Source: Bacteroidota bacterium
Lineage (GTDB): Bacteria; Bacteroidota; Ignavibacteria; UBA10030; UBA8401
Assembly: GCA_020052095.1 (NCBI GenBank)
Contig: JAGVPT010000096.1
Span: 8,571 to 72,570, forward strand
Reading direction: 5' to 3'
DNA: 64,000 nt
The position numbers and the translations under genes were made by a program. Numbering within the stretch: the stretch's first letter is position 1; every line of letters starts with the position of its first letter. The notes below the pieces were generated by a model. The model was not told the origin of the DNA and did not search any database. It saw nothing but the letters and a program-made list of their open reading frames with translations. Positions 1 through 32,805 of the stretch are shown here, piece by piece.

Positions 1-421
<421 letters not shown>

Positions 422-13824: not shown

Positions 13825-15105
13825 CTGAAAGTCATCGCAATCCTGACCATTGCTTTCACACTAATCGGTCCGGCGCAACTTTTGTCCCAAGAATCGCAGC
13901 CGCTTAATCTTGATGAACTTGTTGCCGAGGCGCTTCAAAATAGCCCGCAGCTTCGATCTGCACGGAACCAGGCGGCAGCAGCAAGAACAAAAGTCGACCA
14001 AGTGACGTCGTGGGATGCACCGCAAATCGGATTTGAATTTTATCAAACTCCGATTCAGTCATTTCCCAATCCACTCAAGAATGGAATGGAGACCGACTAC
14101 TTCGTTCAGCAGATGATTCCTTTCCCCGGAAAGCTCTCAGCGATGGGAAAAGCCGCAGAAAATACTGCAGGCATGATAGATCAAGGATACAAAGCACTTG
14201 AGCGACGAATTATCCGTGATTTGAAATCTGCATACTACGAACTCTACCTCGTCCAACGCAAAATCCAAATCAACGCCGAAAATCAGGAATTGATGAGGAA
14301 ATTTGCGGAGATCGCGCGCAAGCAATACGAAGTCGGAATGGGCCAGCAGGCAGATATTTTGCGCGCACAGACCGAGCTGTCGACACTCATCAACGAGGGT
14401 GTTAATCTCCTGAAGGAAAAGAAAGTAGTGGAATCGATGATCAACACGACATTGAGTAGACAGGCAAATGCTCCTCTCGGGTCCGTGGCTGATGTCGAGA
14501 ATACAATCCCTCAATGGACATTCGAGCAACTTCGTCCGCTTGCTCTTGAGAATCGTCCTGAACTAAGGGGAATGACTTTCAATATCGATATGAACAAAGC
14601 TGAATTGTCCGGCTCAAAACGTGAATATTACCCGGATATAATGGCACGTGTTATGTACAAAAACATGGCTGACAGTAAAGACGATTTTTGGTCTGCCATG
14701 GTTGGAATCAATGTTCCACTGGCGTTTTGGTCGAGCGGAAGATACACATCGAAGGTCGAAGAAAATGAACTAAATGTGCGCAAGGCAGAAGATGACCTTG
14801 CGAGCATGAGCAATATGGTGTCATTTGAAGTTCAGGATGCTTTGGTGAAAGTGCAATCCAATTACAATTTGGTTCTTCTCTATAAAAACACCACCATCCC
14901 ACAGGCAGAACAAACATTGCAAGCGACACTGTCGGCATATCAAACGGGCAAAACAGAATTCTTAATGGTCATCGATGCTTATCGTATGCAACTCATGGCA
15001 AAATTGGATCATTACATGTCGGTGATGAGCTATATGGCAAGCCAGGCACAGTTGGAACAAGCCGTCGGGTTGGACATTGCACACATTTCGGAACGAGTTC
15101 AGTAA
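13825..15105 (+). CDS. TolC-family outer membrane efflux protein (CusC/CzcC-like)
   Basis: About 426 aa. Signal peptide followed by the two-repeat TolC helical pattern. An AAGGAG RBS lies 9 nt upstream of ATG 13825, and the ORF also has an ATG at 13804. Confidence 0.8.
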   Translation: MKVIAILTIAFTLIGPAQLLSQESQPLNLDELVAEALQNSPQLRSARNQAAAARTKVDQVTSWDAPQIGFEFYQTPIQSFPNPLKNGMETDYFVQQMIPFPGKLSAMGKAAENTAGMIDQGYKALERRIIRDLKSAYYELYLVQRKIQINAENQELMRKFAEIARKQYEVGMGQQADILRAQTELSTLINEGVNLLKEKKVVESMINTTLSRQANAPLGSVADVENTIPQWTFEQLRPLALENRPELRGMTFNIDMNKAELSGSKREYYPDIMARVMYKNMADSKDDFWSAMVGINVPLAFWSSGRYTSKVEENELNVRKAEDDLASMSNMVSFEVQDALVKVQSNYNLVLLYKNTTIPQAEQTLQATLSAYQTGKTEFLMVIDAYRMQLMAKLDHYMSVMSYMASQAQLEQAVGLDIAHISERVQ

Positions 15106-15130
15106 TTTTATCATCAAGGAGTACGTAATT

Positions 15131-16693
15131 ATGAAGAAAGTCATTATCACAGCAGTTGTCGGCATTCTCCTGGGTTTAGGCGTTGGTTGGTTTGTCTTTC
15201 ATCCCAGCGCTAAGAGCAACGCTTCTAAAGAGCGTAAGATTCTTTTTTATCGCGATCCTATGAATCCACAAATAACCTCCCCGACGCAGAAGAAATCCTC
15301 GGACGGAATGGACTTTGTACCTGTCTATGCGGAACAGTCCGGGGGGACCGGAGAGAAAAAGATCGCCTATTACAAAGATCCGATGCATCCATGGTTTACG
15401 TCAGACAAACCGGGGAAGGCTCCCGATTGCGGAATGGATCTCGTGCCTGCATACGAAGGCGAAAGCGATACGAAAGGGATCAAGATTGATCCGGTCACTG
15501 TCCAGAATATTGGCGTCAAGACTGAAGTCGCAGAAAACAGGAAGCTCACCAAGACTATCCGCGCAACTGGCAAGGTCGATTATGACGAGACGAAAGTCTA
15601 CTCCGTAACGACCAAGATTATGGGATATGTCGAGCGACTTTATGTTGATTATACCGGAAAGACTGTTCGCAAAGGTGAAGTCCTCATGGATCTGTACAGC
15701 CCTGAGCTGGTGACGACACAGCAGGAGTACCTTCAAGCGATTCGCTATCAAAAGGAATTAGAAAAGAGCAGCATTGAAGAGGCGCGCAAGGGCGCCGAAG
15801 AACTTGTGCAAAGTGCAAAGCGTCGACTTCTCTACTGGGATATTCCGGAGAGCGAGATCAAGGCGCTTGAAGAACGCGGAACGCCAAAGAAGACGATGAC
15901 AATTGTTTCTCCGGTTGATGGTGTTGTGATGGATAAGATGGTACTTAAGGGACAAAATGTTATGGCCGGAATGACGCTCTATAAAATAGTTGATCTTTCT
16001 ACCGTGTGGATTCTCGCAGATGTTTATCAATATGAACTCCCGTGGTTGAAAGTGGGACAGACGGCCGACATCGAGCTGTCATATCTTCCAGGCAAACAGT
16101 TTAGCGGTACGGTGAGCTACGTCTATCCATACCTCAACATGGAAACAAAGACTGTAAAAGTGCGAATTCAAGTGACCAACACACTTAACATAGAATTCAA
16201 ACCGGAAATGTACGCGACAGTTAAGCTTTCATCGCCGCTGGCTATAAATGCTGTGACAGTTTCAGACCAGGCGATCATTCGTACGGGTGCGAGAAATATT
16301 ATTGTGGTTGCACTCGGCGGCGGATACTTTGATCCACGAGACGTTACGGTAGGTGTAACCGCAGATGGATACACCCAAGTTCTTGATGGTATACAGGCGG
16401 GAGAGAGTATTGTCACCTCATCGCAATTCTTAATTGATTCCGAAAGCAATCTGAAAGCTGCAATCAATCAGATGAAGGGGCATGAGGGAATGGACATGTC
16501 CAAACCGATGGAAGAAAAGTCGGACTCCTCCGGCCAGCACAAGGGTCACGATATGAATGGAGCGCCCAAAAAGGATCAATCCAAGGCACATGAGGAGCAC
16601 GTGCCCAAAAAAGTGCATCAAAAGGAAAAACCATCCGAACAGGTGAATCATGACATGAGGGATATGCCTGGCATGGATCACGAGAACCATTAA
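15131..16693 (+). CDS. RND efflux periplasmic adaptor (CusB/CzcB-like) with degenerate N-terminal metal-binding repeats and His/Met-rich tail
   Basis: AAGGAG RBS before ATG 15131. Tandem YRDPMNP...DGMDFVP and YKDPMHP...DCGMDLVP motifs, an HlyD-like barrel-sandwich core, and a C-terminal tail rich in H, M, D and K. Confidence 0.85.
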   Translation: MKKVIITAVVGILLGLGVGWFVFHPSAKSNASKERKILFYRDPMNPQITSPTQKKSSDGMDFVPVYAEQSGGTGEKKIAYYKDPMHPWFTSDKPGKAPDCGMDLVPAYEGESDTKGIKIDPVTVQNIGVKTEVAENRKLTKTIRATGKVDYDETKVYSVTTKIMGYVERLYVDYTGKTVRKGEVLMDLYSPELVTTQQEYLQAIRYQKELEKSSIEEARKGAEELVQSAKRRLLYWDIPESEIKALEERGTPKKTMTIVSPVDGVVMDKMVLKGQNVMAGMTLYKIVDLSTVWILADVYQYELPWLKVGQTADIELSYLPGKQFSGTVSYVYPYLNMETKTVKVRIQVTNTLNIEFKPEMYATVKLSSPLAINAVTVSDQAIIRTGARNIIVVALGGGYFDPRDVTVGVTADGYTQVLDGIQAGESIVTSSQFLIDSESNLKAAINQMKGHEGMDMSKPMEEKSDSSGQHKGHDMNGAPKKDQSKAHEEHVPKKVHQKEKPSEQVNHDMRDMPGMDHENH

Positions 16694-16738
16694 CTCGGCA
16701 ATCCAAATAATTCTTGTAGATATATAACGGAGAATACA

Positions 16739-19700
16739 ATGCTAGAAAAAATCATTGAAGCATCTGTTCGCAACAAATTCATGGTCATCCTTGCCGTCTT
16801 ATTCCTCATCGGCTTGGGGATCTACTCGATGTTCAAGATCCCGATTGATGCAATACCAGATTTGAGTGACGTCCAAGTCATCATTTACACAACGTATGAA
16901 GGTCAATCACCGCGCATCGTTGAGGATCAGGTCACCTATCCGCTGACGACAGCGATGGTGGCCGTACCGGGTTCTAAAGTTGTGCGAGGGTATTCCTTCT
17001 TCGGATATTCACTTGTGTATGTGATATTTGAAGACGGAACCGACATTTACTGGGCACGAAGTCGCGTTCTCGAGTATTTGAATTACGCGCAGAAGCGACT
17101 GCCAAAAAACGTAATACCGACTTTAGGTCCTGATGCAACAGGAGTCGGCTGGGTCTTTGAATATACCCTTACATCAGATAAACGCTCGCTGCAAGAATTG
17201 CGTTCGTATCAAGACTGGTATTTGAAGTATGAGTTGACTGCCGTTGAGGGAGTTGCAGAAGTCGCGAGCATCGGAGGCTTCGTCAAGGAGTATCAAGTTA
17301 CGGTAGATCCTGCAAAACTTCTTGCATATAACATTCCGCTGAACATGGTGGAGATGGCGATTACGAATTCCAACAACGACGTGGGCGGCGAAGTCGTTGA
17401 GATGGGTGAAACGGAATTCATGGTGAGGGGCTTGGGCTATATCAAATCATTGGACGACATTAAAGACATTCCCGTTATGGTGGATAAGAAAAGCGGCACG
17501 CCCGTCTATATTCGGGACATTGCTGATGTGACGCTTGGTCCTCTCATGCGGCGAGGTCTTGTGGAGAGCAATGGAGAAGGTGAAGTTGTGGGTGGTATCA
17601 TCGTGATGCGGTATGGCCAGAACGCACTGGATGTGATTGATAATGTGAAGAAGAAACTGGACGTCTTAAAACAAGGATTACCTGAAGACGTGAAGATAAC
17701 GACCGCCTATGACCGCTCGTCGTTAATCGAACGCGCTATTGAAACGCTTAAGGAAAAACTCATTGAAGAAATCGTCATTGTTGCAATCGTTTGTATTCTC
17801 TTCCTGCTTCATGCCCGGAGTGCATTTGTCGCCATCTTCACGTTGCCAACGGCAATTCTCATGGCATTTATCGTGATGAGGTGGCAAGGCATCAATGCCA
17901 ACATCATGTCGCTCGGCGGGATTGCCATAGCAATCGGAGCTATGGTGGATGCCGCTATCATAATGATTGAAAATGCCCACAAGCATATAGAGCGAGAGAA
18001 TGAAAAGCCACCGGAACAGCGAAAGGACCACTGGCAGATAATTCTGGACGCTTCAAAAGAAGTGGGACCCGCTTTGTTCTATTCTCTTCTTGTCATCACA
18101 GTTTCATTTATTCCCGTTTTCACTTTGGAGGCTCAGGAAGGACGATTGTTCCGTCCGTTGGCATTTACCAAGACATATTCAATGGCGGCCGCAGCCATCC
18201 TATCAATCACGATTGTTCCGATCCTCATGGGATATTGGATCCGCGGGAAGATCCTACCGGAAGAACGCAACCCTATTAACCGATTCCTTATCCGAATTTA
18301 TACCCCCGTTGTTGAATTTGTTCTGAAGTTCAACAAGTGGATCATCGTTGCGGCTCTTCTTATCATGGGCGTAACATTCTACCCCTTCAGCAAGATTGGT
18401 TCGGAGTTTATGCCGCCGCTCTACGAGGGTGATCTACTGTATATGCCGACAACTCTTCCCGGCATGTCGATTACCAAAGCAAGAGAACTGCTGCAGCAGA
18501 CTGATAAAATCATCCGTCAATACCCCGAAGTGCATCATGTATTCGGAAAAATCGGGCGGGCAGAAACTGCCACAGACCCTGCAGGACTGGACATGGTGGA
18601 AACGACTATCATGCTTAAACCGGAAATCGAATGGCGACCGGGTATGACTGTCCAAAAACTGATTGATGAGATGGATCGTTCCATTCAATTCCCAGGCGTG
18701 ACTAACGCATGGACAATGCCGATTAAGACCCGTGTCGACATGTTGAGCACAGGAATTAAAACGCCTGTCGGAATCAAAATCTCGGGTCCCGATCTTGCGA
18801 TATTGGAAAAGATTGGAACGGAGGTCGAAGCGATAGTGCGGACCGTGCCTGGAACGCTCAGTGCCTTCGCCGAACGCGCCGTCGGCGGCAATTATTTGGA
18901 TTTCGACATCAATCGGAAGGAGGCTGCACGGTATGGTCTTACTGTCGGCGATGTGCAAAACGTAATTCAGACGGCTATGGGCGGAATGAGTATTACAAAC
19001 ACCGTCGAAGGTTTAGAGCGATACCCGGTGAACCTCCGGTACAGCCGTGAGTTGCGCGATAATATCGAGGCGCTTCAACGAGTGCTTGTCCCGACACCGA
19101 CCGGTGTGCAAATTCCTATTGGTCAACTGGCGACTATCGCGACGCGAAAAGGTCCCATGGTAATACGGAGCGAAGACACTCGTCCCAACGCATGGGTGTA
19201 TATCGATATTAAAGACATCGATGTCGGAACGTATGTTCAGAACGCGAAAAAGATTGTGGCAGAAAAAATAAAGCTTCCGGCCGGTTACAACATTATATGG
19301 AGCGGAGAGTACGAATATATGCAGCGGGCGCAACAGCGTTTGATGCTTGTAATTCCGCTGACCCTCTTCATCATTTTTGTGATCATCTATTTGAATACAC
19401 GATCCTTGACAAAAGTGGCAATCGTATTTCTGGCCGTTCCCTTCTCTCTCGTCGGCGCATTCTGGTTTCTCTACTTCCTAGGATACAACCTCAGTATTGC
19501 CGTATGGGTTGGCATCATCGCGCTGGCCGGATTGGATGCTGAGACCGGAGTGGTGATGCTTCTCTACCTTGATCAAGCCTATGACGAATGGAAACAGAAA
19601 GGACTCATGCGGGGCTTGAAAGATCTCAAAGAGGCAATTCACCATGGGGCCGTGAAGCGCGTTCGCCCGAAAATTATGACAGCGTCAGTAATCATCGCGG

Positions 19701-19891
19701 GGTTAATCCCAATCATGTGGAGTCACGGCACAGGTGCCGATGTGATGAAACGAATCGCTGCACCTATGGTGGGAGGTGTCGTAACGTCCGTGATGTTAGA
19801 ATTGGCTGTTTATCCGGTCATTTACTTCCTGTGGAAGAGTTGGAGCCTCAAAAAAGAAGCAAGGATTGAAGGCCGCTTATTGGAAAACTAA
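16739..19891 (+). CDS. CusA/CzcA-family heavy-metal efflux RND transporter
   Basis: 1050 aa with 12-TM RND architecture. N-terminus MLEKIIEASVRNKFMVIL..., with typical HME-RND length and operon position. Confidence 0.95.
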   Translation: MLEKIIEASVRNKFMVILAVLFLIGLGIYSMFKIPIDAIPDLSDVQVIIYTTYEGQSPRIVEDQVTYPLTTAMVAVPGSKVVRGYSFFGYSLVYVIFEDGTDIYWARSRVLEYLNYAQKRLPKNVIPTLGPDATGVGWVFEYTLTSDKRSLQELRSYQDWYLKYELTAVEGVAEVASIGGFVKEYQVTVDPAKLLAYNIPLNMVEMAITNSNNDVGGEVVEMGETEFMVRGLGYIKSLDDIKDIPVMVDKKSGTPVYIRDIADVTLGPLMRRGLVESNGEGEVVGGIIVMRYGQNALDVIDNVKKKLDVLKQGLPEDVKITTAYDRSSLIERAIETLKEKLIEEIVIVAIVCILFLLHARSAFVAIFTLPTAILMAFIVMRWQGINANIMSLGGIAIAIGAMVDAAIIMIENAHKHIERENEKPPEQRKDHWQIILDASKEVGPALFYSLLVITVSFIPVFTLEAQEGRLFRPLAFTKTYSMAAAAILSITIVPILMGYWIRGKILPEERNPINRFLIRIYTPVVEFVLKFNKWIIVAALLIMGVTFYPFSKIGSEFMPPLYEGDLLYMPTTLPGMSITKARELLQQTDKIIRQYPEVHHVFGKIGRAETATDPAGLDMVETTIMLKPEIEWRPGMTVQKLIDEMDRSIQFPGVTNAWTMPIKTRVDMLSTGIKTPVGIKISGPDLAILEKIGTEVEAIVRTVPGTLSAFAERAVGGNYLDFDINRKEAARYGLTVGDVQNVIQTAMGGMSITNTVEGLERYPVNLRYSRELRDNIEALQRVLVPTPTGVQIPIGQLATIATRKGPMVIRSEDTRPNAWVYIDIKDIDVGTYVQNAKKIVAEKIKLPAGYNIIWSGEYEYMQRAQQRLMLVIPLTLFIIFVIIYLNTRSLTKVAIVFLAVPFSLVGAFWFLYFLGYNLSIAVWVGIIALAGLDAETGVVMLLYLDQAYDEWKQKGLMRGLKDLKEAIHHGAVKRVRPKIMTASVIIAGLIPIMWSHGTGADVMKRIAAPMVGGVVTSVMLELAVYPVIYFLWKSWSLKKEARIEGRLLEN

Positions 19892-19911: not shown

Positions 19912-20496
19912 ATGAAACACATCCGACGAATCGTTCTGTTGCTTTTGACCTTCTGCCTTGTTGCGGGGATTTCGGAGTTGTATGGGCACGGGAAGGAACA
20001 TCACGTCAGGACCGATTCTTTAGATTCAAAGACCGAAGACTCGGCAGACGTGAAAGGTCCGATGACCGTGAAGCATGATGAACCCCAGGAACCCTATCAG
20101 TTAGCCTACAAAGAAGCTCTGACCGAACATCTGCATAACAGGGTGATTCACCTGCCGATTGGATTCGCACTGGCCGCTTTCTTATTGTCGGTTTTAGCAT
20201 TCCGTTGGCAGGAATTGCAGCCCGCAGTACGCTGGCTGGTATTTGTTGCGGCCCTGACATCAATTCTTGCGTATATCACCGGGACTTCTCAAGCGCAATT
20301 CTTTGAAATAAGCGGCAAGAAATGGGTTGTGGAACTTCACCAAAGACTGGGGATCATTACTGCAACCGGATTATTTGTTTGGACATTATTTTTGTTTATT
20401 CAGCCGATGAAGAGATTTGCATTCTTCATTGGAGTACTGGTTGTTCTTCTTATACTCATCACAGGATTCTACGGCGGCATTCTAGCACATGAATAA
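19912..20496 (+). CDS. Membrane protein, DUF2231-like
   Basis: 194 aa. His-rich N-terminal region followed by HNRVIHLPIGFALAAFLL and 3-4 TM helices. Confidence 0.6.
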   Translation: MKHIRRIVLLLLTFCLVAGISELYGHGKEHHVRTDSLDSKTEDSADVKGPMTVKHDEPQEPYQLAYKEALTEHLHNRVIHLPIGFALAAFLLSVLAFRWQELQPAVRWLVFVAALTSILAYITGTSQAQFFEISGKKWVVELHQRLGIITATGLFVWTLFLFIQPMKRFAFFIGVLVVLLILITGFYGGILAHE

Positions 20497-20578
20497 ACCC
20501 TGGTTCACACAACAATATCGTTATGATAAATCAACTGAATCACTTTTACTGCATTTCACAAAAAGGAGACTTAACACT

Positions 20579-21235
20579 ATGAAGACTAAAAGTTTTGTTG
20601 CGGTCGTTCTTTTGACATTTCTATTCTCATTTGCCGTTGTTGCGCAACACGATCACGGTTCTCAGCAGAAGAAGAAGTCGGAATCGATGAACGACATGAT
20701 GGGAAAACCTACCTTTGAAAAAGCTATCGATGGCATTCAAATTAAGGTGTGGCTCATCACTCAAGAAGAACACAAGAAAATGATGGATCAAAGCATGTCT
20801 GCCAAGCATTCCGAGGGGCATGACATGGGAATGATGGGAGATGAAACAACTAAAGAGAGCAAGGATTCTTCGAGCCACGATCATATGATGCGTGGTGACA
20901 TGAAGAATATGGATCACAGCATGATGGGAAAAGGTATGAAGCATGACATGAAGGGGATGGACCACAAAAAAATGATGGAAACTATGATGTCAGGAACACA
21001 TCATGTGATGGTCACAATCACCGATGAGAAAAATAGCGAACCGGTCGATGAGAAAGAGATAACGATCCAAATTACTGCGCCGTCGACAAAATACAGTACG
21101 GTTAAGCTTACTCCTATAATGAATCATTTCGGCGCTGGTCTTGCATTTGACGAAAAGGGTATCTACAAAGTGGGCCTCGTGCTTGACATTGCGAAGGAAA
21201 CGAGGAATATCGCGTTTTCCTATGAAGTGAAATGA
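20579..21235 (+). CDS. Secreted Met/His-rich protein (putative Cu/Ag binding)
   Basis: AAGGAG RBS and a signal peptide. A long HDMGMMG..HDHMMRGDMKNMDHSMMGKGMKHDMKGMDHKKMMETMM insert sits inside a beta-rich (Ig-like) frame. Confidence 0.6.
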   Translation: MKTKSFVAVVLLTFLFSFAVVAQHDHGSQQKKKSESMNDMMGKPTFEKAIDGIQIKVWLITQEEHKKMMDQSMSAKHSEGHDMGMMGDETTKESKDSSSHDHMMRGDMKNMDHSMMGKGMKHDMKGMDHKKMMETMMSGTHHVMVTITDEKNSEPVDEKEITIQITAPSTKYSTVKLTPIMNHFGAGLAFDEKGIYKVGLVLDIAKETRNIAFSYEVK

Positions 21236-21321: not shown

Positions 21322-21510
21322 ATGGCAAAAGATCCTGTATGTGGAATGGACGTGGATGAACGAGAAGCGGCGGGAAAGAGTGAATACGATGGGAAGATGT
21401 ATTATTTCTGCTCGCCCGGCTGTAAGAAAATGTTCGACAAAAACCCCGAAAGTTTTCTCAAAAAAGGAAACGTCACAGGGGACATACCGAGAGATTTGCC
21501 AAACCACTGA
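21322..21510 (+). CDS. YHS/TRASH domain metal-binding protein
   Basis: 62 aa. MAKDPVCGMDVDE...YYFCSPGCKKMF matches the YHS Cys pattern. Confidence 0.85.
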   Translation: MAKDPVCGMDVDEREAAGKSEYDGKMYYFCSPGCKKMFDKNPESFLKKGNVTGDIPRDLPNH

Positions 21511-21592: not shown

Positions 21593-22627
21593 ATGAAGAA
21601 GATCATCGCGTACGTGAACACTATGAGAGTACACTGGCTCGTCGAGGAGCTTGAGAAAATTGGAATCAATGAGATCATGGTCACAGAGTACTTCTCTCCG
21701 AAGTCGCAGATATCGCGCATGGAGCTTCTGGCGAGTGATGAACGGGTTGAGACGACGCGGGAAGTTATCCATCGAGTTGGCACCACGGGCTCGCTCGCTG
21801 ATCACCTCTTTTTCGTCGAGGATTACGACCCGAGCCTGCCGAGTCAACTCCCGCTCGGGAAAAGAACGAGCAAATTGGAAGAATTGCGCGTGAAGCAGCT
21901 TATCAATTTCATGCTTCCTCGCGTTCACAAAAGAATAACGTCCGCTTTCTTTGTTATAACAGTGAGTATCCTTTCCGTAGGAATTTTCATCGTTGTCAAA
22001 ACAGATGCGTTACGACGGATTGCAACGGAAACGGCCGAACATATTCAGATAATTTCAGAAGCGACAAAACAGGTAGAAAGCGCAACACTCGAAGAGATGT
22101 TGGCGGTCGAACGATTTCACCGCGGCGAAGCTGCGCCGGCTAACGAGGATTTTCGGAATGCGCGCATGAGGTTCACTAACGCCGTGAGAGCGTTGAGGGA
22201 AGCTACGGCTGCAAGAGTTGGTAGGCTTGACTCGCTGACCGATCTCGAACATCAATTCCATTTCATTGCCGGAGGAATGTTCGGAATTGTCGACAGCCTT
22301 TCGAGATATGGGAATAACAAGCATCCGAATAAAATTCACGACTTGTCACGATCACATAAACAGATGATGTCATCACTCGATAACGTGCGGCTTCAGCTTC
22401 TCACCTTCCTTGCCGCAATTGAATTAGACGCGAAGAATCAGAATCTCGAAAAGCAAAAAGAGTTCGACACGGTCATCAAGGGTGTTAGAGTCTTATTAGT
22501 ACTATTGGCTCTTGCTGCCGTAGGAATTACCATAATGGTCTGGTTTATCGTAGAACGCAAAGTTTCGCGTCCGATTGAAAAGCTGGTGGCAGAAGCCAAC
22601 GTAGTTGACACGGGAAAGGTGCGATGA
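21593..22627 (+). CDS. P-II-like (T-loop-less) domain fused to a two-TM periplasmic sensor and truncated HAMP
   Basis: Residues 1-85 align to the P-II gene in this window (MKKI.A.....L.E.L...G....VTE ... PK...ELL.SD........I.....TG...D..FFVED) but lack the T-loop. The rest is paralogous to the N-terminal sensor of the next kinase (AVERFHRGE/D, H.QMMSSLD). Confidence 0.7.
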   Translation: MKKIIAYVNTMRVHWLVEELEKIGINEIMVTEYFSPKSQISRMELLASDERVETTREVIHRVGTTGSLADHLFFVEDYDPSLPSQLPLGKRTSKLEELRVKQLINFMLPRVHKRITSAFFVITVSILSVGIFIVVKTDALRRIATETAEHIQIISEATKQVESATLEEMLAVERFHRGEAAPANEDFRNARMRFTNAVRALREATAARVGRLDSLTDLEHQFHFIAGGMFGIVDSLSRYGNNKHPNKIHDLSRSHKQMMSSLDNVRLQLLTFLAAIELDAKNQNLEKQKEFDTVIKGVRVLLVLLALAAVGITIMVWFIVERKVSRPIEKLVAEANVVDTGKVR

Positions 22628-22812
22628 AAACAATTGAATGGCTTTTCGCGTCAGTATTGGTCCCTTTCTCATTCGGAATGATAGCCCAATATTCACCTGG
22701 CAACGAAACGATGAGTGGTTCCGCCGTAATGAAATTCGATGTTGAAGCAAGAACTCTAATTAAGAGTGGCACTGATATTACTAAGATGATAGTGTATTCC
22801 GATCATGTTTAA
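22624..22812 (+). CDS. Hypothetical small protein (62 aa)
   Basis: ATGA overlap with the upstream stop and an 8-nt overlap with the downstream kinase start. No recognisable motif. Confidence 0.3.
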   Translation: MKTIEWLFASVLVPFSFGMIAQYSPGNETMSGSAVMKFDVEARTLIKSGTDITKMIVYSDHV

Positions 22813-24349
22813 CGGTATTGGCAAAAAAATTACCCTAGCATTTATTGTCGTAACGCTGAGCGTTCTAGGCGCAGGCCTTTTTGTATTCAACAGGATCGAA
22901 GAAGTTCACGATTCGAGTATGGCAACAAGTCAAAATGTTCAAGCTGTGGTGAGTGCGGCAGGAATTGTTCAGAATTCCATTTTTCATGAAATATGGGCAG
23001 TCGAGCGCTTCCATCGGGGAGATACCATTCCAGCACATCAGGAGTTTCAGGATGCACGGAAGGCGATGGATGAGGCCATTCAGGTTCTCCGAGTATCCAA
23101 TGTGTTAAACTCAATAACCTGCGATTCTCTCTCTGCCCTAAGGCATCGTTTCCAGGCTCTCGTGCTACAGATGTTCGAAACAAGTGATACTCTCAAGAGG
23201 TCTCGACAATCGGGAAATACCAAAATTACTGATGAACTCACGCGAATTCATCAAAGCATGATGACGTCGCTTGATCAGCTTCATCGTCAATTGGAAGAGA
23301 TTCTTCTCGTATTACAGCTGAGAACAAGCGCACTCTCTACCCACAGTCAGGAGGAAAATGCACATACCTTAAATGAAGTGAAGATTGCCTTAGTCATCCT
23401 TTTTGCACTCGCCGTCTTTGTAACAATTGTAGCGTGGTTTATGATTGAGCATTACGTAACCCGTCCTCTACAGCGATTAACTAAAGAAGTGAAATCAATA
23501 GGCTCAGGCGACTTCGGGAGACGGATTCATATTGGTGGAGATGATGAAATCAAACTTCTCGAAAGCAGTTTTAATTTGATGGTGGAGGATTTACAAAACA
23601 ACATCCAGAAACGCCGGGAAGACGAAATGGAGCTAATGCATGAGCATAAACTCGCCGCGATTGGCAGCCTCGCCCAAGGTATCGCTCATAATCTCAATAA
23701 TTCCTTGGGGATTATCCTTCTGAGTTGCGGTGCGTTGAGAAGAAATGATCCTTCGAGCGAAGAAATAGATTTCATTAGTAGAGCCGTCACGAAGATGAAG
23801 ACTATCATTGACTCGTTGTTGCATAAGAGCCGACAGGAACAGACGGAAGCAAAACAAGAGATCAGCCTTAATAATCTGATCACCGAAGAACTGCGCTTTC
23901 TTGAATTGGATCCCAAATTCAAAGAAATCGGCGAAAACGTTCAGTTCGGCGAGAGTCTACCAACAATTGTTGGCGTTTACTCTGACTTTAGTCAAAGCAT
24001 TACGAACTTCATACGGAATGCCATGGACGCGATGTATCATTCGCCGACGAAACGTCTAAGCATACAAACGCGTTTCGATGACCAGAATATTTATGTTGAC
24101 ATTGCTGATTCGGGCTGCGGCATTCCTGAAGAGAACATTCCGAAATTGTTTGACCCTTTTTTCACGACAAAACCAATCAAAGGAACCGAAATTGGGGGCG
24201 AGCCCACTGGTACGGGCCTTGGGCTTTCGAGTTGTTATCAACTTCTTCAACAGTATAATGCGACAATAACAGTAAAGAGCAAAGTCGGAGAAGGTTCAAT
24301 GTTCACAATTGCAGTTCCATACAATTCTCAAACAACTGAAAGAGGTTAG
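22805..24349 (+). CDS. Sensor histidine kinase (two-TM sensor, HAMP, HisKA, HATPase)
   Basis: 514 aa. HAMP (RPLQRLTKEVKSIGSGDF), H-box (LAAIGSLAQGIAHNLNNSL), and N/G boxes (IRNAMDAM, DSGCGIP, GTGLGLS). Confidence 0.9.
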   Translation: MFNGIGKKITLAFIVVTLSVLGAGLFVFNRIEEVHDSSMATSQNVQAVVSAAGIVQNSIFHEIWAVERFHRGDTIPAHQEFQDARKAMDEAIQVLRVSNVLNSITCDSLSALRHRFQALVLQMFETSDTLKRSRQSGNTKITDELTRIHQSMMTSLDQLHRQLEEILLVLQLRTSALSTHSQEENAHTLNEVKIALVILFALAVFVTIVAWFMIEHYVTRPLQRLTKEVKSIGSGDFGRRIHIGGDDEIKLLESSFNLMVEDLQNNIQKRREDEMELMHEHKLAAIGSLAQGIAHNLNNSLGIILLSCGALRRNDPSSEEIDFISRAVTKMKTIIDSLLHKSRQEQTEAKQEISLNNLITEELRFLELDPKFKEIGENVQFGESLPTIVGVYSDFSQSITNFIRNAMDAMYHSPTKRLSIQTRFDDQNIYVDIADSGCGIPEENIPKLFDPFFTTKPIKGTEIGGEPTGTGLGLSSCYQLLQQYNATITVKSKVGEGSMFTIAVPYNSQTTERG

Positions 24350-24352
24350 ACA

Positions 24353-24586
24353 ATGCATATATTTGCACTGCTGCGATCAAGTTTGCTGTTTTCATCTCGC
24401 ATTCCTCTGGCAATGCTTGGTTCGACCGTCCATTATCAATCTCATTCCGATATCCAACTCCAACGAGAAGGCAAGGTTAGCGACGCATTTGTGAATCGAG
24501 TCTTCAATCAGCATTTTGCAGCAGGGCAACTTTTCTCCGGCGAGCTTAAACCAAGCGACGTCGTCGAACGAACATGGTTCAGATAA
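24353..24586 (+). CDS. Hypothetical small ORF (77 aa), doubtful
   Basis: It fills the gap between the kinase stop and the next RBS. No motif, and a competing antisense ORF exists. Confidence 0.2.
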   Translation: MHIFALLRSSLLFSSRIPLAMLGSTVHYQSHSDIQLQREGKVSDAFVNRVFNQHFAAGQLFSGELKPSDVVERTWFR

Positions 24587-24596: not shown

Positions 24597-25223
24597 ATGA
24601 AAACGATTATTTGTGCCTTGGTCGCAGCTTTTCTCTCCCTTGCTTTTTTAGGGTGCGGCGCAAGTTTCACGACGAAAAAGACAGAACAACCCAGTCCACT
24701 TGCACTCATCAAATCGAATCAGCCGCTCGCCATCATGCCGTTTGAAACCGAAAGCGCACTTTCCAATCTTGGCGGCCAGGTTTCTGATGAGGTGATTGTT
24801 AACCTTCTTGAACATAATCCTCAAATGAAAATCATTCCCGCAACTGTGGTGCGCAACTACCTGCTCACGAGCAATCTGGGCGTGGGGGGAATCCCTGATA
24901 TGCACACAATCCACAACCTGAAAGAAGGGCTAAAGTGCAAATACTTGCTCACGGGAAACCTGTACACATCGATCGGGGAAGTCAAATACACCAGCACGTA
25001 TTCAAGCCGCATTGCGTCGGGGAGTGTAACGGTGAGGCTTGTTGATTGTGACTCGACGAATGTCATTTGGGCGAAACATGTTCAGGCGACCTTCTCGACG
25101 ACAACATACTACTACAGCGGCGGACAGCAGCAAACGACATACTACACAGACGGACAGTTAATGCAAGAACTTATTCGAAAATTAGGATACGAAATAGCAA
25201 GGTATTTCTTTGAACGTGAATAG
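24597..25223 (+). CDS. Lipoprotein, CsgG/LpoB/TolB-N-like pattern
   Basis: AAGGAG RBS and lipobox LAFLGC. The pattern PLAIMPFETES...LGGQVSDEVIVNLL...KYLLTGNLY is typical of small periplasmic scaffold lipoproteins. The family call is tentative. Confidence 0.55.
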   Translation: MKTIICALVAAFLSLAFLGCGASFTTKKTEQPSPLALIKSNQPLAIMPFETESALSNLGGQVSDEVIVNLLEHNPQMKIIPATVVRNYLLTSNLGVGGIPDMHTIHNLKEGLKCKYLLTGNLYTSIGEVKYTSTYSSRIASGSVTVRLVDCDSTNVIWAKHVQATFSTTTYYYSGGQQQTTYYTDGQLMQELIRKLGYEIARYFFERE

Positions 25224-27341: not shown

Positions 27342-29660
27342 ATGAAAAAGCATCTTAATCTTTTTGCATTGCTTGTGTTGCTTATCTGTGGAAACACAGT
27401 AGCGACGGCGCAACCGCTTCTTAAAGACGATTTCACCGATTCTATTGGAACGGTGCTAACTGCTGCAGGATGGAGCCTGAGCGGAACAAGTGTAATAAAT
27501 CCCATAACAATCGTCGCGGGAACCGGAATAACTTTTTCAGGATACTCAGCATCGGGAATCGGTAACGCTGTTGCGATGAAGAACACCGGACAAGATGTCT
27601 ATAAATCATTCACAACGGTCAACTCCGGCAGCGTGTATCTTTCATTTTTAATGAATGTCTCTGCAGCTCTCACCGGCGACTATTTCATCGCAGTATCTCC
27701 GCCATCGGTACAGTTCAATTACTATGCGCGTCTTCATCTCAAGAGTACAACAGGCGGGTATCTGGTCGGAATTAGCAAGTCTAACGAAGTAACGGGTGGT
27801 TCACAATACGGAACAACAACCTTCAGCCTGAACACAACATACCTTGTTGTTATGAAATATACATTTGTTCCGGCGGCTACCGCGGCAGACACTCTCAATG
27901 ATCCTATCAGTGTGTATGTTCTCCCGAGTGGAGCCAGCCTTATCGCTGAACCCGCAACTCCCGAACTCAATGCCTACGTAAATGCAACCAAAGGTGATGC
28001 TATCGATCTCGGATATGTTACACTCCGTCAGGGAAGTGCTACCGCTGCCCCAACAATGACCATCGACGGCATACGTGTTGACACAACGTGGGCAGGTGTC
28101 ATTGGAAAATCTCAGGCAGTTGCAACTTTTTCCCCCACAAGTCTTGATTTCAAAAAAGTGATTGTTGGAACAAGTGTAAAAGACAGCATCAGCATTTTGA
28201 ATAATGGCGGCGACACATTAAAAATAACTTCTGTCACTTCAAACTATTCGGTTTTTGTTGTAACGCCAAGCGCTGCAACTATTTTGCCTTTAGCAACACA
28301 GAAATTCTACGTTACATTCACGCCAACCGGCGCTGTTGCAAGTTCGGCAAAAATTTCGTTCGCCAGTAATGCCGCAACTTCTCCGGATAGTGTGATGGTT
28401 ACAGGCAGTGGTACACCGGCAGGCTTTAAAGAACCAATCTTTACTGTAACGCCGTCGTCTCTCGACTTTAAGGGCGTGCTGAAGAACCAATCGAAAACAG
28501 ACAGCGTTACCGTGAAAAATACCGGAACCGATTCACTCTTTATTACGGCAATTGCTTCAACGAACGGAGTATTCACTGTTACGCCTACAACAGCACGGCT
28601 CGATACAATGGCAACAGCGAAATTCTTCATCATGTTTACACCAACAACGGGAGGATTGGCAGCAGGATTGATAGTGTTCACCGATAACACTGCCGAGGGT
28701 ACCGATACCGTAAAAGTAAGCGGAAGCGGTCTTGCGCTTGGATCGATCAAATCAGCGCGTCTTGCTGCAAATGGTACTGAAGTTCTTTTTGAAGGAATGG
28801 TGACACGCGCAAAAGGTGCGTTCACATATATGCAGGATACTTCTGCAGGTATTGTTGTTCGGCAAACGAGCGGTGCATGGTTCGATTCTGTTACCACCGG
28901 TGGATTGAAAGGAGGAGACAAGGTACGCGTGTATGGAAAGACTTCAGAGTATAATTCTTTGAAACAAATTAATACTGTTGATCTCTATAGCTTTGAAAGA
29001 ATCTCGCGAAGCAATTCTTTGCCGAATGCACAACTTGTAAATTTAAAAGAACTTGTAACCAACGGCGAAAATTACGAAGCTGAATTTGTCAAAGTAATTT
29101 CCGTATCAATTACAGGAAGCGGAACGTTTACCGCAGCAACAACCTATGCGATCACAGACCCTAGCGATGCATCAAACGCAGTTGCATTACGAATTCCGAA
29201 TGCAGCCGACAGCGATGTTGATGGGATGCCGTTCATTACTGTGGCAACATTTACCGGCGTCGTTGGACAGTTCAGCTCTTCCGATCCTGTTGCCGGATAT
29301 CAGTTAATGGCGGTTGATTTAACCGATCTTAAAGATAACACACTGAGTGTTCAAGAATTAGCTTCAGGAATACCGGCAGCGTATACGTTGTATAATAACT
29401 ATCCGAATCCGTTCAACCCGTCAACAACAATCAAGTTCGGTGTACCGGAAGCAAGCAATGTTACACTGAAGATTTATGATATTGTTGGACGAGAGGTAGC
29501 AACGCTCGTGAATGATCAGGTTGCGGCGGGATATCATGACGTTTCATGGGATGCAAGCGCCATGGCGAGCGGTGTGTATCTCTACCGCATCACTGCAACA
29601 TCAGTCAGAGGTCAGAAACAATCTTTTACTCAGGGAAGGAAATTGGTGCTGATGAAATAA
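27342..29660 (+). CDS. Secreted T9SS C-terminal-target protein with two choice-of-anchor-D/HYDIN-like repeats and an OB-fold-like region
   Basis: 772 aa with a signal peptide. Two about 95-aa repeats (SLDFK.V....K.DS..(I/V).N.G.D.L.IT.....), a GSIKSARLAANGTEVLFEGMV region, and the C-terminal NYPNPFNPSTTIKF...GVYLYRI sorting domain. Confidence 0.85.
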   Translation: MKKHLNLFALLVLLICGNTVATAQPLLKDDFTDSIGTVLTAAGWSLSGTSVINPITIVAGTGITFSGYSASGIGNAVAMKNTGQDVYKSFTTVNSGSVYLSFLMNVSAALTGDYFIAVSPPSVQFNYYARLHLKSTTGGYLVGISKSNEVTGGSQYGTTTFSLNTTYLVVMKYTFVPAATAADTLNDPISVYVLPSGASLIAEPATPELNAYVNATKGDAIDLGYVTLRQGSATAAPTMTIDGIRVDTTWAGVIGKSQAVATFSPTSLDFKKVIVGTSVKDSISILNNGGDTLKITSVTSNYSVFVVTPSAATILPLATQKFYVTFTPTGAVASSAKISFASNAATSPDSVMVTGSGTPAGFKEPIFTVTPSSLDFKGVLKNQSKTDSVTVKNTGTDSLFITAIASTNGVFTVTPTTARLDTMATAKFFIMFTPTTGGLAAGLIVFTDNTAEGTDTVKVSGSGLALGSIKSARLAANGTEVLFEGMVTRAKGAFTYMQDTSAGIVVRQTSGAWFDSVTTGGLKGGDKVRVYGKTSEYNSLKQINTVDLYSFERISRSNSLPNAQLVNLKELVTNGENYEAEFVKVISVSITGSGTFTAATTYAITDPSDASNAVALRIPNAADSDVDGMPFITVATFTGVVGQFSSSDPVAGYQLMAVDLTDLKDNTLSVQELASGIPAAYTLYNNYPNPFNPSTTIKFGVPEASNVTLKIYDIVGREVATLVNDQVAAGYHDVSWDASAMASGVYLYRITATSVRGQKQSFTQGRKLVLMK

Positions 29661-29684
29661 GCAATGCTCTCGCACGTTCGTGTT

Positions 29685-29779
29685 CTCGCAATCGCGGTCG
29701 CAAGAAATCTTTTGACAAAGAACCGGAAAAATATATCAGTGGCAGTGTCGAGAACGACCAGGAGAAAAAGAGTTACTGA
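29685..29779 (+). pseudogene. 3' remnant of a YHS-domain gene
   Basis: About 70 bp (29700-29771) is nearly identical to 26141-26212. It translates to CS..KKSFDKEPEKYISGSVENDQE, lacks the N-terminal CGM half, and begins right after the T9SS gene stop. Confidence 0.4.
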
Positions 29780-29853
29780 TTATGGAAAGCGGCGTCTCGG
29801 TGAGAGGCGCCAGCTTTTCACATCTAACTGCAATGCAGATGAGGAGATATTAT

Positions 29854-31257
29854 ATGAAAACTATTAGATTCATTTTCAGTTTTTGTTTCATGCTTATCGT
29901 TTCGATAGGCGTTTCCCAAGCTCAACAACTTGAAATTCATTTCATCAATGTTGGCTGGGGTGGCTCAATGTTCATCAAAGGACCGAATGGAACGACGTTG
30001 TTAATTGAAGCGGGTAATACCGGCAAGGGAACGGCGAAGGTCGTTCCGTATTTGAAGTCCGTCGGCATCCAGCCTGCCGATGGATTTGATTACGCAATTG
30101 CCGGGCATCAACACTCCGATCATCTCGGCGGACTGGCTGAAGTTATCAATGCCGGTTATAATGTTCGCGTGAAGAACTATTACAACGGCTCTGCATACAC
30201 AACTACCCCCGTTACAGAATGGAACAACGCCGCAGCCAAGACAACGGCAGGCGCTCCCGTAATTCTGCCGGTCGGAACGACCATTAACCTCGGTGACTCT
30301 GCAACAATCACCTGCGTTGCGAGAGATGGTAATATCATCGGCGGCGGAACGGTTTCCGTTTCAGACGAAAACGACCGCTCAATCGCGCTCTTGATTCAAT
30401 ACAAAGGGTTTGATTTCCTGTGGGGAAGCGATCTCGGAGGCGGCAGCATAGATCAATCGTGTACAGGCCGCTCAACATCTCAAGTAGATGTGGAAACTTC
30501 CGTGATTACTGCGATCTCTCCCAGCGGCGCGTCACCGTTGATTCCCGCAGGCGGAATTGATGTGCTGTTTGTGAATCATCACGGCAGCGAAAGCAGCACA
30601 AACAAAAATTGGATGAACTTGTCTGCACCGGCAGTCGCCGTGATTAGCACGGGCGATGGACAATCAAGCAATTGGTATTTGCCGCGTAAAGATGTTGTTG
30701 AAAATGTTCTGCTTGCCCAAGCGACTTCCTGTATAACGGTTCCAGCGGCGCTGGTACTCCAAACGGAAGAAGGAGCGCCTGCCGGTGCGCTGACAAGCAC
30801 GGCGGGATTTAGCGTCGGCGATATCAAGATCAGCGCCAACGGAAAGGGTTATTATGTTGTGTCAGCCGACGACGCCGTTACGCAAGGACCGAACGAAGTT
30901 AGTGCCGCAGGATTGCCGCTCACCTTTACAACAGACGACCATCTACCTGGACATACTCCTACAGCCGTTCTTGATGAATCCAAGTTACAACCCGAAGGTT
31001 TTGAGTTAGGACAGAATTTTCCCAATCCATTCAATCCGTCAACGACAATCTCGTTTGTACTTCCATTGTCAGGATACGTGAGTTTGCATATCTTCAACAC
31101 GCTTGGTGTGAGAGTCGCGACTCTTCTGGATCAACATATTGAAGCAGGTCGGTATAGTGTCAAGTGGGATGCTGGTAAATTTGCAAGCGGCGTCTATTAT
31201 TATCGTTTGCAGGCTGGATCGACCGGTAAACAGAGAAAACTTGTCTTACTTCGGTAG
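29854..31257 (+). CDS. Secreted MBL-fold (ComEC/Rec2-type) hydrolase with T9SS C-terminal domain
   Basis: GAGGAG RBS and a signal peptide. LEIHFINVGWGGSMFI, the HxHxDH motif GHQHSDHLGG, and C-terminal FPNPFNPSTTISF...GVYYYRL. Confidence 0.85.
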   Translation: MKTIRFIFSFCFMLIVSIGVSQAQQLEIHFINVGWGGSMFIKGPNGTTLLIEAGNTGKGTAKVVPYLKSVGIQPADGFDYAIAGHQHSDHLGGLAEVINAGYNVRVKNYYNGSAYTTTPVTEWNNAAAKTTAGAPVILPVGTTINLGDSATITCVARDGNIIGGGTVSVSDENDRSIALLIQYKGFDFLWGSDLGGGSIDQSCTGRSTSQVDVETSVITAISPSGASPLIPAGGIDVLFVNHHGSESSTNKNWMNLSAPAVAVISTGDGQSSNWYLPRKDVVENVLLAQATSCITVPAALVLQTEEGAPAGALTSTAGFSVGDIKISANGKGYYVVSADDAVTQGPNEVSAAGLPLTFTTDDHLPGHTPTAVLDESKLQPEGFELGQNFPNPFNPSTTISFVLPLSGYVSLHIFNTLGVRVATLLDQHIEAGRYSVKWDAGKFASGVYYYRLQAGSTGKQRKLVLLR

Positions 31258-31280
31258 GAGAATTTCCCGAATTGACACGC
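31129..31280 (+). repeat. 152-bp near-identical duplication, copy 1 (gene 3' end plus 23 bp of 3' flank)
   Basis: gatcaacatattgaagcaggtcggtatagtgtcaagtggga...cttcggtaggagaatttcccga.ttgacacgc matches 32677-32828 with about 7 mismatches. Upstream parts of the same domains are much more diverged. Confidence 0.8.
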
Positions 31281-31602
31281 ATAGGGATATTCACATTACA
31301 ATGATTTGGTATTTTTCCATTTGGAGAAATTTTCCATCACAGCGAACCAGTCTATGGCTGAAATAATGAAAACATGGTATTCATGTAAGATTACTGAAGT
31401 TACGCAAAAACTCAAAAACAGTCATGCTGAGCAAGGCGCAGAGGCTATATTTCTGTCATCCTTCGACGCATCCTGCAGAAAAACGCAGGATGACTATGGC
31501 ATTTGCGCCGCGTCGAAGCATATTTAAGCGGAAAAAACCGCCTGCGGAACATCAGTAAGATCAGTAATATCAAACGAGCAAAAGGCAAGTTGAAAGGAAT
31601 AT

Positions 31603-32805
31603 ATGAAAACGATTCAAATACTTATTGCATTTTGTCTGCTCTCCGAAATTGTTCAATCGCAGACACCAACATACAGAGCACTTTTTGACAATACAAAGAA
31701 CGAGACGGCGGGTAATGCAGACTGGATTATCGATACCGACCAACCTGTACCCTCCCCCCCACAATCGGGCATTATCTCCACGACTCCGGAAAATTATTGG
31801 CTTGGCGGCATTTCGGCCTGGGGTGTGGGTTTGGTGAAGCTCGGTTTCACCGTGCATACTTTGACGAAGACATATGGAATTACATTTGGAAATAGCAACA
31901 ATCCGTATGATCTCTCGAACTACAATCTCTTTGTGGTATGCGAACCTCAAAACCCATTCACTCCATCCGAGAAAGAAGCTGTCAAATCGTTTGTTCGTAA
32001 CGGCGGCGGGCTTTTTATGATTGCTGACCACGATGTTTCGGATCGTGATGGAGATGGATGGGATTCTCCTAAGGTCTGGAATGCATTTGGTACTGACACT
32101 CTGTTTGGGATGCATTTCCAATCCTCAAGCGAATCGAATAACAACATTTCACAGAAATCGAGTAACGTAAGCATTCTGAATGATAGCATAATGGTAGCTC
32201 GGACTGGAACGATTACCAAATTAAGCTTCTATAACGGAACAACGATGAGACTTTTTCCGCACGTGAATTCAACTGTAATTGGCCACGTGTGGATGAATGG
32301 AGCTGCACAGAGTACTTCTCAGGCTATGACCGCAACAGCCCAATATGGAAAAGGCAGAGTCGCAGCGGTGGGCGATAGTTCTCCTGCTGATGATAGTACA
32401 GGTCAATCGGGAAATAAATTATATAATGGCTGGGGCGAAGCGGGCGTATCAAATAATATTTTGCTTCTCAATATCAGTCTTTGGTTGGCTGGTGGAAATT
32501 CCACGACGGACGTGAGAGGGTTGAATACGACTGTGCGTCCCGACGATTTTGAATTGATCCAAAACTATCCAAATCCGTTTAATCCTTCGACGACGATTCC
32601 GTTTACGCTCTCATCGCCAGGACACGTGCGCTTGCTGATTTTCAACACACTTGGAGAGAGAGTAGCGACTCTTTTCGATCAACATATTGAAGCAGGTCGG
32701 TATAGTGTCAAGTGGGACGCTGGTAAATTTGCAAGCGGCGCTTATTATTATCGTTTGCAGTCTGGATCGACCGTTAAACAGAGAAAACTTGTTTTACTTC
32801 GGTAG
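31603..32805 (+). CDS. Secreted T9SS C-terminal-target protein, unknown N-terminal domain
   Basis: 400 aa with a signal peptide. FDNTKNETAGNADWIIDTD, NLFVVCEPQNPFTPSEKEAVKSFVRNGGGLFMIADH, and C-terminal NYPNPFNPSTTIPF. Confidence 0.8.
   Translation: MKTIQILIAFCLLSEIVQSQTPTYRALFDNTKNETAGNADWIIDTDQPVPSPPQSGIISTTPENYWLGGISAWGVGLVKLGFTVHTLTKTYGITFGNSNNPYDLSNYNLFVVCEPQNPFTPSEKEAVKSFVRNGGGLFMIADHDVSDRDGDGWDSPKVWNAFGTDTLFGMHFQSSSESNNNISQKSSNVSILNDSIMVARTGTITKLSFYNGTTMRLFPHVNSTVIGHVWMNGAAQSTSQAMTATAQYGKGRVAAVGDSSPADDSTGQSGNKLYNGWGEAGVSNNILLLNISLWLAGGNSTTDVRGLNTTVRPDDFELIQNYPNPFNPSTTIPFTLSSPGHVRLLIFNTLGERVATLFDQHIEAGRYSVKWDAGKFASGAYYYRLQSGSTVKQRKLVLLR

Follow-up and report, generated by a model that had tools for sequence, protein, structure and literature searches.

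P-II proteins are among the most widespread signalling proteins; they are known as free trimers of small size that use their T-loops to read metabolites of the cytoplasm. Canonical members (GlnB/GlnK, PF00543) signal by binding partners, often transporters, and direct binding has been described for AmtB, SbtA and NrtBCD (bioRxiv 10.1101/2023.08.10.552651). Two groups of relatives have been connected with metals. PII-NG proteins are small P-II proteins encoded beside czc/cus resistance-nodulation-division (RND) efflux operons (Sant'Anna 2009, as cited in PMC7726332), and the P-II-like protein CutA1 is reported, in the part of PMC7726332 that cites Arnesano 2003, to bind Cu(II) at the equivalent of the P-II ATP site (see also PMC12685090). 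Here, we analyzed a 64,000-nucleotide (nt) stretch of DNA from a Bacteroidota bacterium (hereafter the window; coordinates are window positions unless a locus is named, L-numbers denote homologous loci and P-numbers proteins). On its plus strand, at 21593-22627, within an RND efflux island predicted to be of the Cu(I)/Ag(I) type, lies a gene in which a P-II-like head without a T-loop is fused to a transmembrane sensor body. The fused gene belongs to a real, conserved family whose domain architecture is new, is assembled from known parts and is nearly confined to one bacterial class, the Ignavibacteria. We propose, with a probability of roughly 0.45, that its product is a kinase-less transmembrane signalling adaptor of the Ignavibacteria Cu/Ag (CusCBA-type) island.

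The fused gene and the parts of its product are as follows, with the evidence for each in parentheses.

21593-22627, plus strand: fused-protein gene, 344 aa, with P-II-like head, first transmembrane segment (TM1), periplasmic four-helix bundle, second transmembrane segment (TM2) and HAMP helix AS1 (list of open reading frames, ORFs).
21593-21832, plus strand: P-II-like head, residues 1-80 (AlphaFold2, AF2; Foldseek; hmmsearch of PDB sequences; hhalign; PF00543 score).
21833-21871, plus strand: conserved linker, residues 81-93 (alignment; hhalign register; AF2 confidence).
21872-21934, plus strand: cytoplasmic juxtamembrane helix, residues 94-114 (alignments; AF2).
21935-21997, plus strand: TM1, residues 115-135, ITSAFFVITVSILSVGIFIVV (sequence; alignment of fused and kinase families).
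21998-22489, plus strand: periplasmic four-helix bundle, residues 136-299 (AF2 model of the sensor; Foldseek; invariant columns).
22490-22552, plus strand: TM2, residues 300-320, VLLVLLALAAVGITIMVWFIV (sequence; alignment with kinases).
22553-22624, plus strand: HAMP helix AS1 only, residues 321-344, ERKVSRPIEKLVAEANVVDTGKVR (alignment with full kinase HAMP domains).

The ATG at 21593 is backed by the start MKKI(T/I)AYVNT in all homologues and by the JGI gene call (P0214, 344 aa); the NCBI call (P0001, 334 aa) begins 10 codons 3' of this ATG (21593-21625). Read from the sequence, both termini are cytoplasmic and residues 136-299 periplasmic, with the basic stretch RVHKR preceding TM1 and ERK following TM2. 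The body is thus as the earlier note on this DNA had described it, a helical sensor between two transmembrane segments followed by a truncated HAMP; the periplasmic part comprises about 164 residues and not the 190 given there. A Pfam scan of the whole 344-aa protein returned no match and an NCBIfam scan nothing usable. Consensus promoter and terminator scans of the 13- to 27.5-kb region gave hits at or below shuffled expectation and did not define the operon structure.

We asked whether the head is a true P-II relative, as the earlier note had claimed, and both profile and structure searches found a P-II fold. In an AF2 model built from 27 homologues (mean predicted local distance difference test score, pLDDT, 77), residues 2-77 form a beta-alpha-beta-beta-alpha-beta fold, and the best 50 matches listed by Foldseek against the PDB were all P-II, GlnK, GlnZ or PstA (TM-score about 0.7, normalized to the target). 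Alignment of the head profile with a profile from a small P-II/PII-NG alignment gave a probability of 99.0% (hhalign; E 3.7e-18), with a sole gap of 18 residues exactly at the T-loop. When PDB sequences were searched with a profile of 24 homologous heads, 29 of 29 matches were P-II proteins (best E 1.1e-3). Pairwise BLAST of the head against the P-II protein encoded in the window was weak (E 7e-4). The gene for the latter is located as follows.

1-325, minus strand: canonical P-II (GlnB/GlnK-type) gene, clipped by the window edge (six-frame translation).

This gene had been called a genuine P-II, and its product does score 110.6 bits on PF00543, but the gene runs on the minus strand and is incomplete in the window. 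The head has in common with canonical P-II the homologous core, the MKKI start, the VTE strand and the T-G...D of the B-loop. In contrast to the free, approximately 112-aa trimer, it is tied to a membrane receptor; its T-loop (18 to 20 residues between strands 2 and 3 of P-II) is missing, a short conserved loop, YFSPxSxIS, stands in the same place, and the GDGK of the B-loop has become ADHL. Unlike canonical P-II, it falls below the family thresholds, scoring 15.5 bits on PF00543 (cutoff, 25) and 21.9 bits on the NCBIfam P-II model (cutoff, 202). The head is a genuine domain of the P-II superfamily without a T-loop, and it lies outside the curated family PF00543 because its score does not reach that family's cutoff. 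CutA1 resembles it in having a T-loop-less P-II-like fold and a link to copper, but no CutA was present among the best 50 Foldseek matches listed and there was no Pfam match to CutA1 (PF03091). Within the family, K2, A6, Y7, R12, H14, W15, E18, E32, P36, S38, R42, G63 and G66 of the head are invariant. The linker that follows has the consensus DPxLPSQIPLGKR (residues 79-91) and aligns, in the hhalign register, with the C-terminal IRTGE segment of P-II; model confidence is low around it (pLDDT below 50 at residues 83-97).

The same register bears on whether the head, like P-II, SbtB and PstA, could still bind a metabolite such as an adenine nucleotide and so adjust efflux to the state of the cell. 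T65-G66-S-L-A69-D70-H71-L72 of the head align with T83-G84-x-x-G87-D88-G89-K90 of P-II. The counterparts of T83, G84 and D88 are therefore retained (T65, G66 and D70), and R42 stands for K58; together with the true P-II homology, and with the canonical 114-aa PF00543 P-II encoded beside the pump in several related islands, this speaks for such a sensor of energy or metabolites. However, G87, G89 and K90 are replaced, the T-loop base G37-R38-Q39 is deleted, and the PF00543 score is below the cutoff. We consider this role very unlikely.

The fused protein is conserved as a unit. A first homologue search returned 49 proteins, nearly all of exactly 344 aa, at 36 to 82% identity, and over 40 homologue clusters, with identities as low as 36%, keep the length and the stop. 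The 27 aligned homologues have a common start, a common stop and 30 invariant columns, with the head as the best-conserved part. A pseudogene, or a frameshifted 5' duplicate of the kind that the earlier note had named among the findings that would undo its reading, is ruled out by this conservation of length and stop at orthologous loci. More generally, a nonfunctional remnant, either a kinase stripped of its catalytic half or a duplicate with a frameshift, might be suspected since the protein ends within its HAMP and one homologue (L012) has an internal stop; set against identical lengths and stops in dozens of lineages and a head that is conserved best of all, such an origin is scarcely credible.

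A search of 1.84 billion representative proteins with the head profile (filter-free HMMER) gave 50 matches at E <=1e-3, made up of about 10 fused clusters (331 to 352 aa), about 25 stand-alone proteins or fragments (approximately 40 to 125 aa), one methyltransferase fusion (P0183) and some marginal matches to PII-NG-like proteins that do have a T-loop. We found 41 loci, with about 13 full-length fused genes, in a set of 185,579 species genomes (one genome per species). Nearly all were from Ignavibacteria, namely Ignavibacterium, Melioribacter and metagenome-assembled genomes labelled Bacteroidota; both named genera have cultured representatives. A word-indexed search for homologues, queried with the sensor profile, yielded fused proteins only and no new architecture, no Pfam or NCBIfam model covers the fusion, and a literature search retrieved no paper describing a P-II head joined to a transmembrane sensor. 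Outside the window, a second fusion partner of the domain was seen in P0183 (322 aa), a SAM-dependent methyltransferase with a C-terminal T-loop-less P-II-like domain at residues 223-301. The JGI pipeline names some family members "nitrogen regulatory protein PII."

We then considered the body of the protein. When residues 104-344 were modelled from sequences of the fused family and of the paralogous kinase family described below (AF2; pLDDT, 84), the result was four long antiparallel helices (residues 107-176, 180-204, 206-239 and 245-342). The best well-overlapping Foldseek matches were HK9 (3va9; TM-score, 0.78), Adeh_2942 (4k0d; TM-score, 0.71), PcaY and NarQ, with scores normalized to the target. 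In the model, the periplasmic part is thus a four-helix-bundle sensor of the histidine-kinase/chemoreceptor kind, its best structural matches being the bundles of NarX/NarQ, Tar/PcaY, HK9 and Adeh_2942. No sequence relationship to those domains was detectable, a search of PDB sequences with the sensor profile found no relative, and the conserved His/Met set is specific to the family. The periplasmic domain of CusS, by comparison, has a mixed alpha/beta fold, whereas the bundle of the fused protein is all helical.

Across the fused and kinase families together, the only invariant residues are F119 (in TM1), H176, F222, H255, M259 and P327, and D213, M229 and W317 (in TM2) are nearly invariant. 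Several of these lie in the sequence blocks ERFHRG, SH..MM.SLD and RP, which the earlier note had quoted as shared and which do hold H176, H255, M259 and P327. Counting residues along the AF2 helices places H176 of helix 1 about 41 residues from the membrane, M229 of helix 3 about 39, and H255 and M259 of helix 4 about 45 and 41, respectively. We infer from conservation and the helix model that H176, M229, H255 and M259 may form a putative His2Met2 Cu(I)/Ag(I) site at one membrane-distal level. Such His/Met clusters resemble the periplasmic Cu(I)/Ag(I) sites of CusF, CopC and CusS.

On the cytoplasmic side, the juxtamembrane helix, in which L95-E96-E97 are invariant, runs unbroken into TM1 in the model; the kinase paralogue is without such a helix. 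P327 is the HAMP proline, invariant in the fused family and the kinases alike, and every homologue ends at the boundary between AS1 and the connector. Accordingly, only AS1 is present, the connector and AS2 being absent and Pfam finding no HAMP (PF00672) in the fused protein; HisKA and HATPase_c are likewise absent, as the protein ends after AS1. Compared with CusS-type and other kinases in which transmembrane segments flank a sensor and a HAMP follows, the fused protein has the same receptor chassis but lacks AS2, HisKA, the ATPase domain and a nearby response regulator.

In the window, a kinase with a related sensor is encoded just downstream of the fused gene.

22805-24349, plus strand: histidine kinase gene, 514 aa, with transmembrane segment, four-helix bundle, transmembrane segment, HAMP, HisKA and HATPase_c (Pfam).
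22805-23509, plus strand: kinase sensor module, residues 1-235 (BLASTP; alignment; tree).

The kinase has a full HAMP (residues 216-264), HisKA (288-346) and HATPase_c (394-506), as the earlier note had read it. That note had also taken the sensor of the fused protein to be paralogous to the kinase N terminus, and the two do align without a gap (fused residues 107-341 with kinase residues 1-235; 32% identity over 235 aa; E 9e-42 by BLASTP), with kinase H70, M123, H149 and M153 corresponding to H176, M229, H255 and M259. Identity between the kinase sensor and the fused proteins is 27 to 33% throughout, and its window neighbor, at 32%, does not stand out as closer. A neighbor-joining tree sets the kinase sensors apart as a clade with 88% bootstrap support; the fused proteins fall into two further clades (97% and 87%). 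These comparisons indicate that the kinase sensor is an old paralogue of the fused-protein sensor. A recent tandem duplication of the sensor is ruled out, the kinase sensor being equally distant from all fused proteins. In 5.8 billion clusters the kinase had only eight or nine full-length orthologues, and further matches covered the catalytic core alone.

The genes around the kinase record how it came to lie where it does.

22624-22812, plus strand: 62-aa ORF, the 5' remnant of an approximately 129-aa lipoprotein gene (BLASTP against the L001 and L007 proteins; alignment).
24473-24583, plus strand, in ORF 24353-24586: 3' remnant of the same lipoprotein gene, residues about 93-129, the last 37 (tblastn).

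The 62-aa ORF overlaps both neighboring genes and has no Pfam domain. Its match to the 129-aa lipoprotein covers about the first 50 residues of the latter, but the ORF has lost the lipobox Cys (AQYS for GCST) and other conserved residues. The end of the lipoprotein is found just past the kinase stop (54 to 57% identity; E about 1e-10 by tblastn). Because the two remnants flank the kinase, we conclude that the kinase gene interrupted the lipoprotein gene, and it is through this insertion that it adjoins the fused gene in the window. About 40 central codons of the split gene are missing, and both remnants are decaying. The 62-aa ORF had been read as a translationally coupled gene between its neighbors; with the lipobox Cys and motifs lost and the remainder of the gene beyond the kinase, a functional coupled gene is ruled out.

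We used this history to weigh the proposal that the fused protein is a co-sensor that heterodimerizes with the paralogous kinase and modulates or poisons it, a heterodimer being one AS2 helix short. The sensors are paralogous, have the same invariant His/Met residues and a similar TM2/AS1, the kinase is found in the same island at seven loci (the window, L010, L011, L012, L013, L014 and L015), and it has no receiver partner nearby. However, about 11 of 18 distinct fused-gene loci have no paralogous kinase within 8 to 10 kb, the two genes adjoin in this way only in the window, through an insertion that destroyed a lipoprotein gene, and the sensors, at 27 to 33% identity, belong to separate old clades. 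At most kinase-bearing loci the kinase lies between a YHS-domain gene and the gene p249, several genes 3' of the fused gene. L012 is the one genome in which it lies directly upstream; there the fused gene (10718-11752) is interrupted in frame by a stop codon just past TM1, from either a nonsense mutation or a sequencing error. The kinase is therefore an optional accessory member of the island, a later insertion and not an obligate partner, and the co-sensor role that the earlier note put forward, quite unlikely overall, may hold in the seven kinase-bearing lineages but cannot be the function of the family. The lack of such a kinase at most fused-gene loci is among our grounds for favoring an adaptor without a dedicated kinase.

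No receiver domain was found in the window island (approximately 13.2 to 43 kb), as the earlier note had stated, or at any fused-gene locus (tblastn with four receiver queries; stored Pfam annotations). The lone receiver gene of the window (59475-60149, minus strand; 224 aa) lies outside the island, at a distance of 35 kb from the orphan kinase, and its neighbor encodes a histidine kinase of 857 aa with PAS/PAS/GAF domains. The two form a separate two-component pair (59475-63197, minus strand), and nothing links the pair to the island.

The island itself was characterized from its gene content. Besides the genes already listed, it includes the following.

13804-19891, plus strand: CusC-CusB-CusA-type RND efflux operon heading the island (Pfam OEP, HlyD_D23/HMBD, ACR_tran; TIGR00914).
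20489-21235, plus strand: His/Met-rich protein gene (sequence; homologues in L003, L005, L008 and L009).
21322-21510, plus strand: YHS-domain gene next upstream of the fused gene, its 62-aa product without a signal peptide (Pfam YHS, 67 bits).
24597-25223, plus strand: approximately 208-aa lipoprotein gene (69 to 75% identity to the L005, L007, L008 and L009 proteins).

The heavy-metal RND setting noticed earlier is of the CusCBA type. The pump scores 1275 bits against Escherichia coli CusA and 564 bits against the CzcA-like ZneA, and therefore, judged by these scores, the island is of the Cu(I)/Ag(I) type, which in proteobacteria is controlled by CusS/CusR. On the plus strand the order is OEP, CusB-like adaptor (HMBD), CusA-type pump, DUF2231 protein, His/Met-rich protein, YHS protein and fused gene, followed by the 62-aa ORF, the kinase, the 208-aa lipoprotein, a Big_5 protein, a second YHS protein and three genes for type IX secretion system (T9SS) cargo and, distally, by p249, DZR/CcmH, a TonB-dependent receptor, FtrD-like and FtsX/ABC genes. 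This gene order recurs around every homologue examined; the family was always found in a CusCBA-type island, at most loci right behind a YHS gene. Elsewhere, the fused gene is followed by the gene for the approximately 129-aa lipoprotein, sometimes with a small P-II-like gene between them, and then by the 208-aa lipoprotein gene. The product of 20489-21235 has dense His/Met runs, such as HDMGMMGDE and MDHSMMGKGMKHDMKGMDHKKMMETMM, and is likely a periplasmic Cu(I)/Ag(I) binder.

Other features of the island are particular to the window. The three Por_Secre_tail (T9SS sorting) genes at 27342-32805, which encode an Ig-like repeat protein, a metallo-beta-lactamase-fold protein and a DUF4350/ABC_transp_aux-like protein, separate the second YHS gene from p249; at other loci those two are close neighbors. 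In the distal island, 38100-38771 and 42311-42967 encode paralogous zinc-ribbon/FtrD-like membrane proteins, of which other loci show one.

T-loop-less P-II-like domains also occur as separate proteins (86 to 124 aa), encoded directly 3' of the fused gene at five loci.

L001:11097-11405, L005:11104-11364, L007:9098-9406, L008:4368-4631 and L015:9101-9337: stand-alone T-loop-less P-II-like genes.

These paralogues read C-D-H-C at the four positions of the P-II G-D-G-K. The window has no stand-alone gene of this type after its fused gene. At L034 to L043, L046, L048, L049 and L052 (positions approximately 8001; Melioribacter and other Ignavibacteria) the domain was found alone (75 to 98 aa), often with Cys in a motif GTCG...DH; a YHS gene is located 17 to 68 nt upstream, making a recurrent YHS/P-II-like pair. 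A CxxC-type stand-alone gene at L011:8519-8760, L013:9109-9350 and L014:7531-7772 is frameshifted and has no start codon; all three assemblies share one and the same sequence there, and all are kinase bearing. The closest T-loop-bearing relatives of the head are 114-aa P-II proteins of sister islands (E about 1e-5), encoded by separate PII-NG-like genes in L001, L007, L009, L015, L016 and L022; the window island has no PII-NG gene. PII-NG shows the same theme as the fused gene, a P-II relative within a heavy-metal RND island, but it is free, has an insert of T-loop length and GDG, and passes PF00543 (55.6 bits), whereas the head is tied to a 260-aa membrane body.

The YHS domain is a probable copper sensor (PMC4626032). 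We also considered that the fused protein might be a membrane-tethered metal handler and not a sensor, its head taking Cu(I) from the YHS protein or buffering it and the periplasmic part serving as a scaffold that docks to CusB/CusA or the lipoproteins. The adjacent YHS gene, the D-H of the fused head and the C-D-H-C of the stand-alone paralogues at the former ATP loop, and the many conserved genes for small periplasmic proteins and lipoproteins in the island are all in keeping with this. The body, however, is a typical receptor module that a real kinase also uses, and the invariant residues on its periplasmic side lie together at a single height, as those of a ligand site would; a handling role appears unlikely to us.

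We return to the kinase-less signalling adaptor, for which we envisage the following mechanism. The periplasmic bundle would bind Cu(I)/Ag(I) via H176, M229, H255 and M259, and the conformational change would pass via TM2/AS1 to the N-terminal juxtamembrane helix with its invariant LEE, which may form a HAMP-like bundle together with AS1. A change of state in the P-II-like head would follow. The head would work by protein-protein contact, as P-II proteins do, and not by catalysis, and its cleft would probably hold metal rather than nucleotide. Likely partners would be the upstream YHS-domain protein (YESHS type, cytoplasmic), the stand-alone CDHC paralogue or an island transporter; 8wm7, a structure cited for P-II action on transporters, is among the Foldseek matches of the head. 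Where the adjacent kinase is present, this optional member would read the same periplasmic signal by phosphotransfer. The alternative offered in the earlier note, coupling of a cytoplasmic ligand to periplasmic metal sensing, is the most plausible of its proposals.

Several observations weigh against this mechanism. Only 10 of 17 fused loci have a YHS gene no more than 400 nt upstream (of the stand-alone loci, 19 of 34 have one within 400 nt on either side), a stand-alone paralogue accompanies the fused gene at only about 7 of 17, and of the CDHC cluster the fused head retains just D70-H71. The Foldseek E values of the sensor are weak (0.02 to 0.1, at probabilities up to 1.00), and the putative metal site is drawn from sequence conservation and from residue counts along the predicted helices. 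In addition, P-II domains are trimeric whereas four-helix-bundle/HAMP receptors are dimeric, and signalling could run either out-to-in or in-to-out.

A further step would be to regard a P-II-superfamily domain as a third type of output module for receptors, in addition to kinases/cyclases and chemoreceptor tips, with periplasmic Cu/Ag switching the head; we hold this broader suggestion only tentatively and think it somewhat doubtful. Once switched, the metal-binding head would either gate a transporter or bind a YHS metallochaperone, and the clash between dimer and trimer could resolve as trimers of dimers or as 2:1 heterotrimers with the CDHC paralogue.

The family presents a P-II homologue that has lost its T-loop and ATP loop, has gained His at the ATP site (Cys in the paralogues) and is hard-wired to a periplasmic receptor, and a single island in which one sensor module is common to a kinase and a nonenzymatic adaptor. 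The clade is narrow, and with it the association of P-II relatives with metal pumps is opened to experiment. If the fused protein signals, it would extend P-II biology to transmembrane sensing and metal homeostasis and would offer a way into the association of P-II relatives with heavy-metal RND pumps, for which an explanation has long been wanting.

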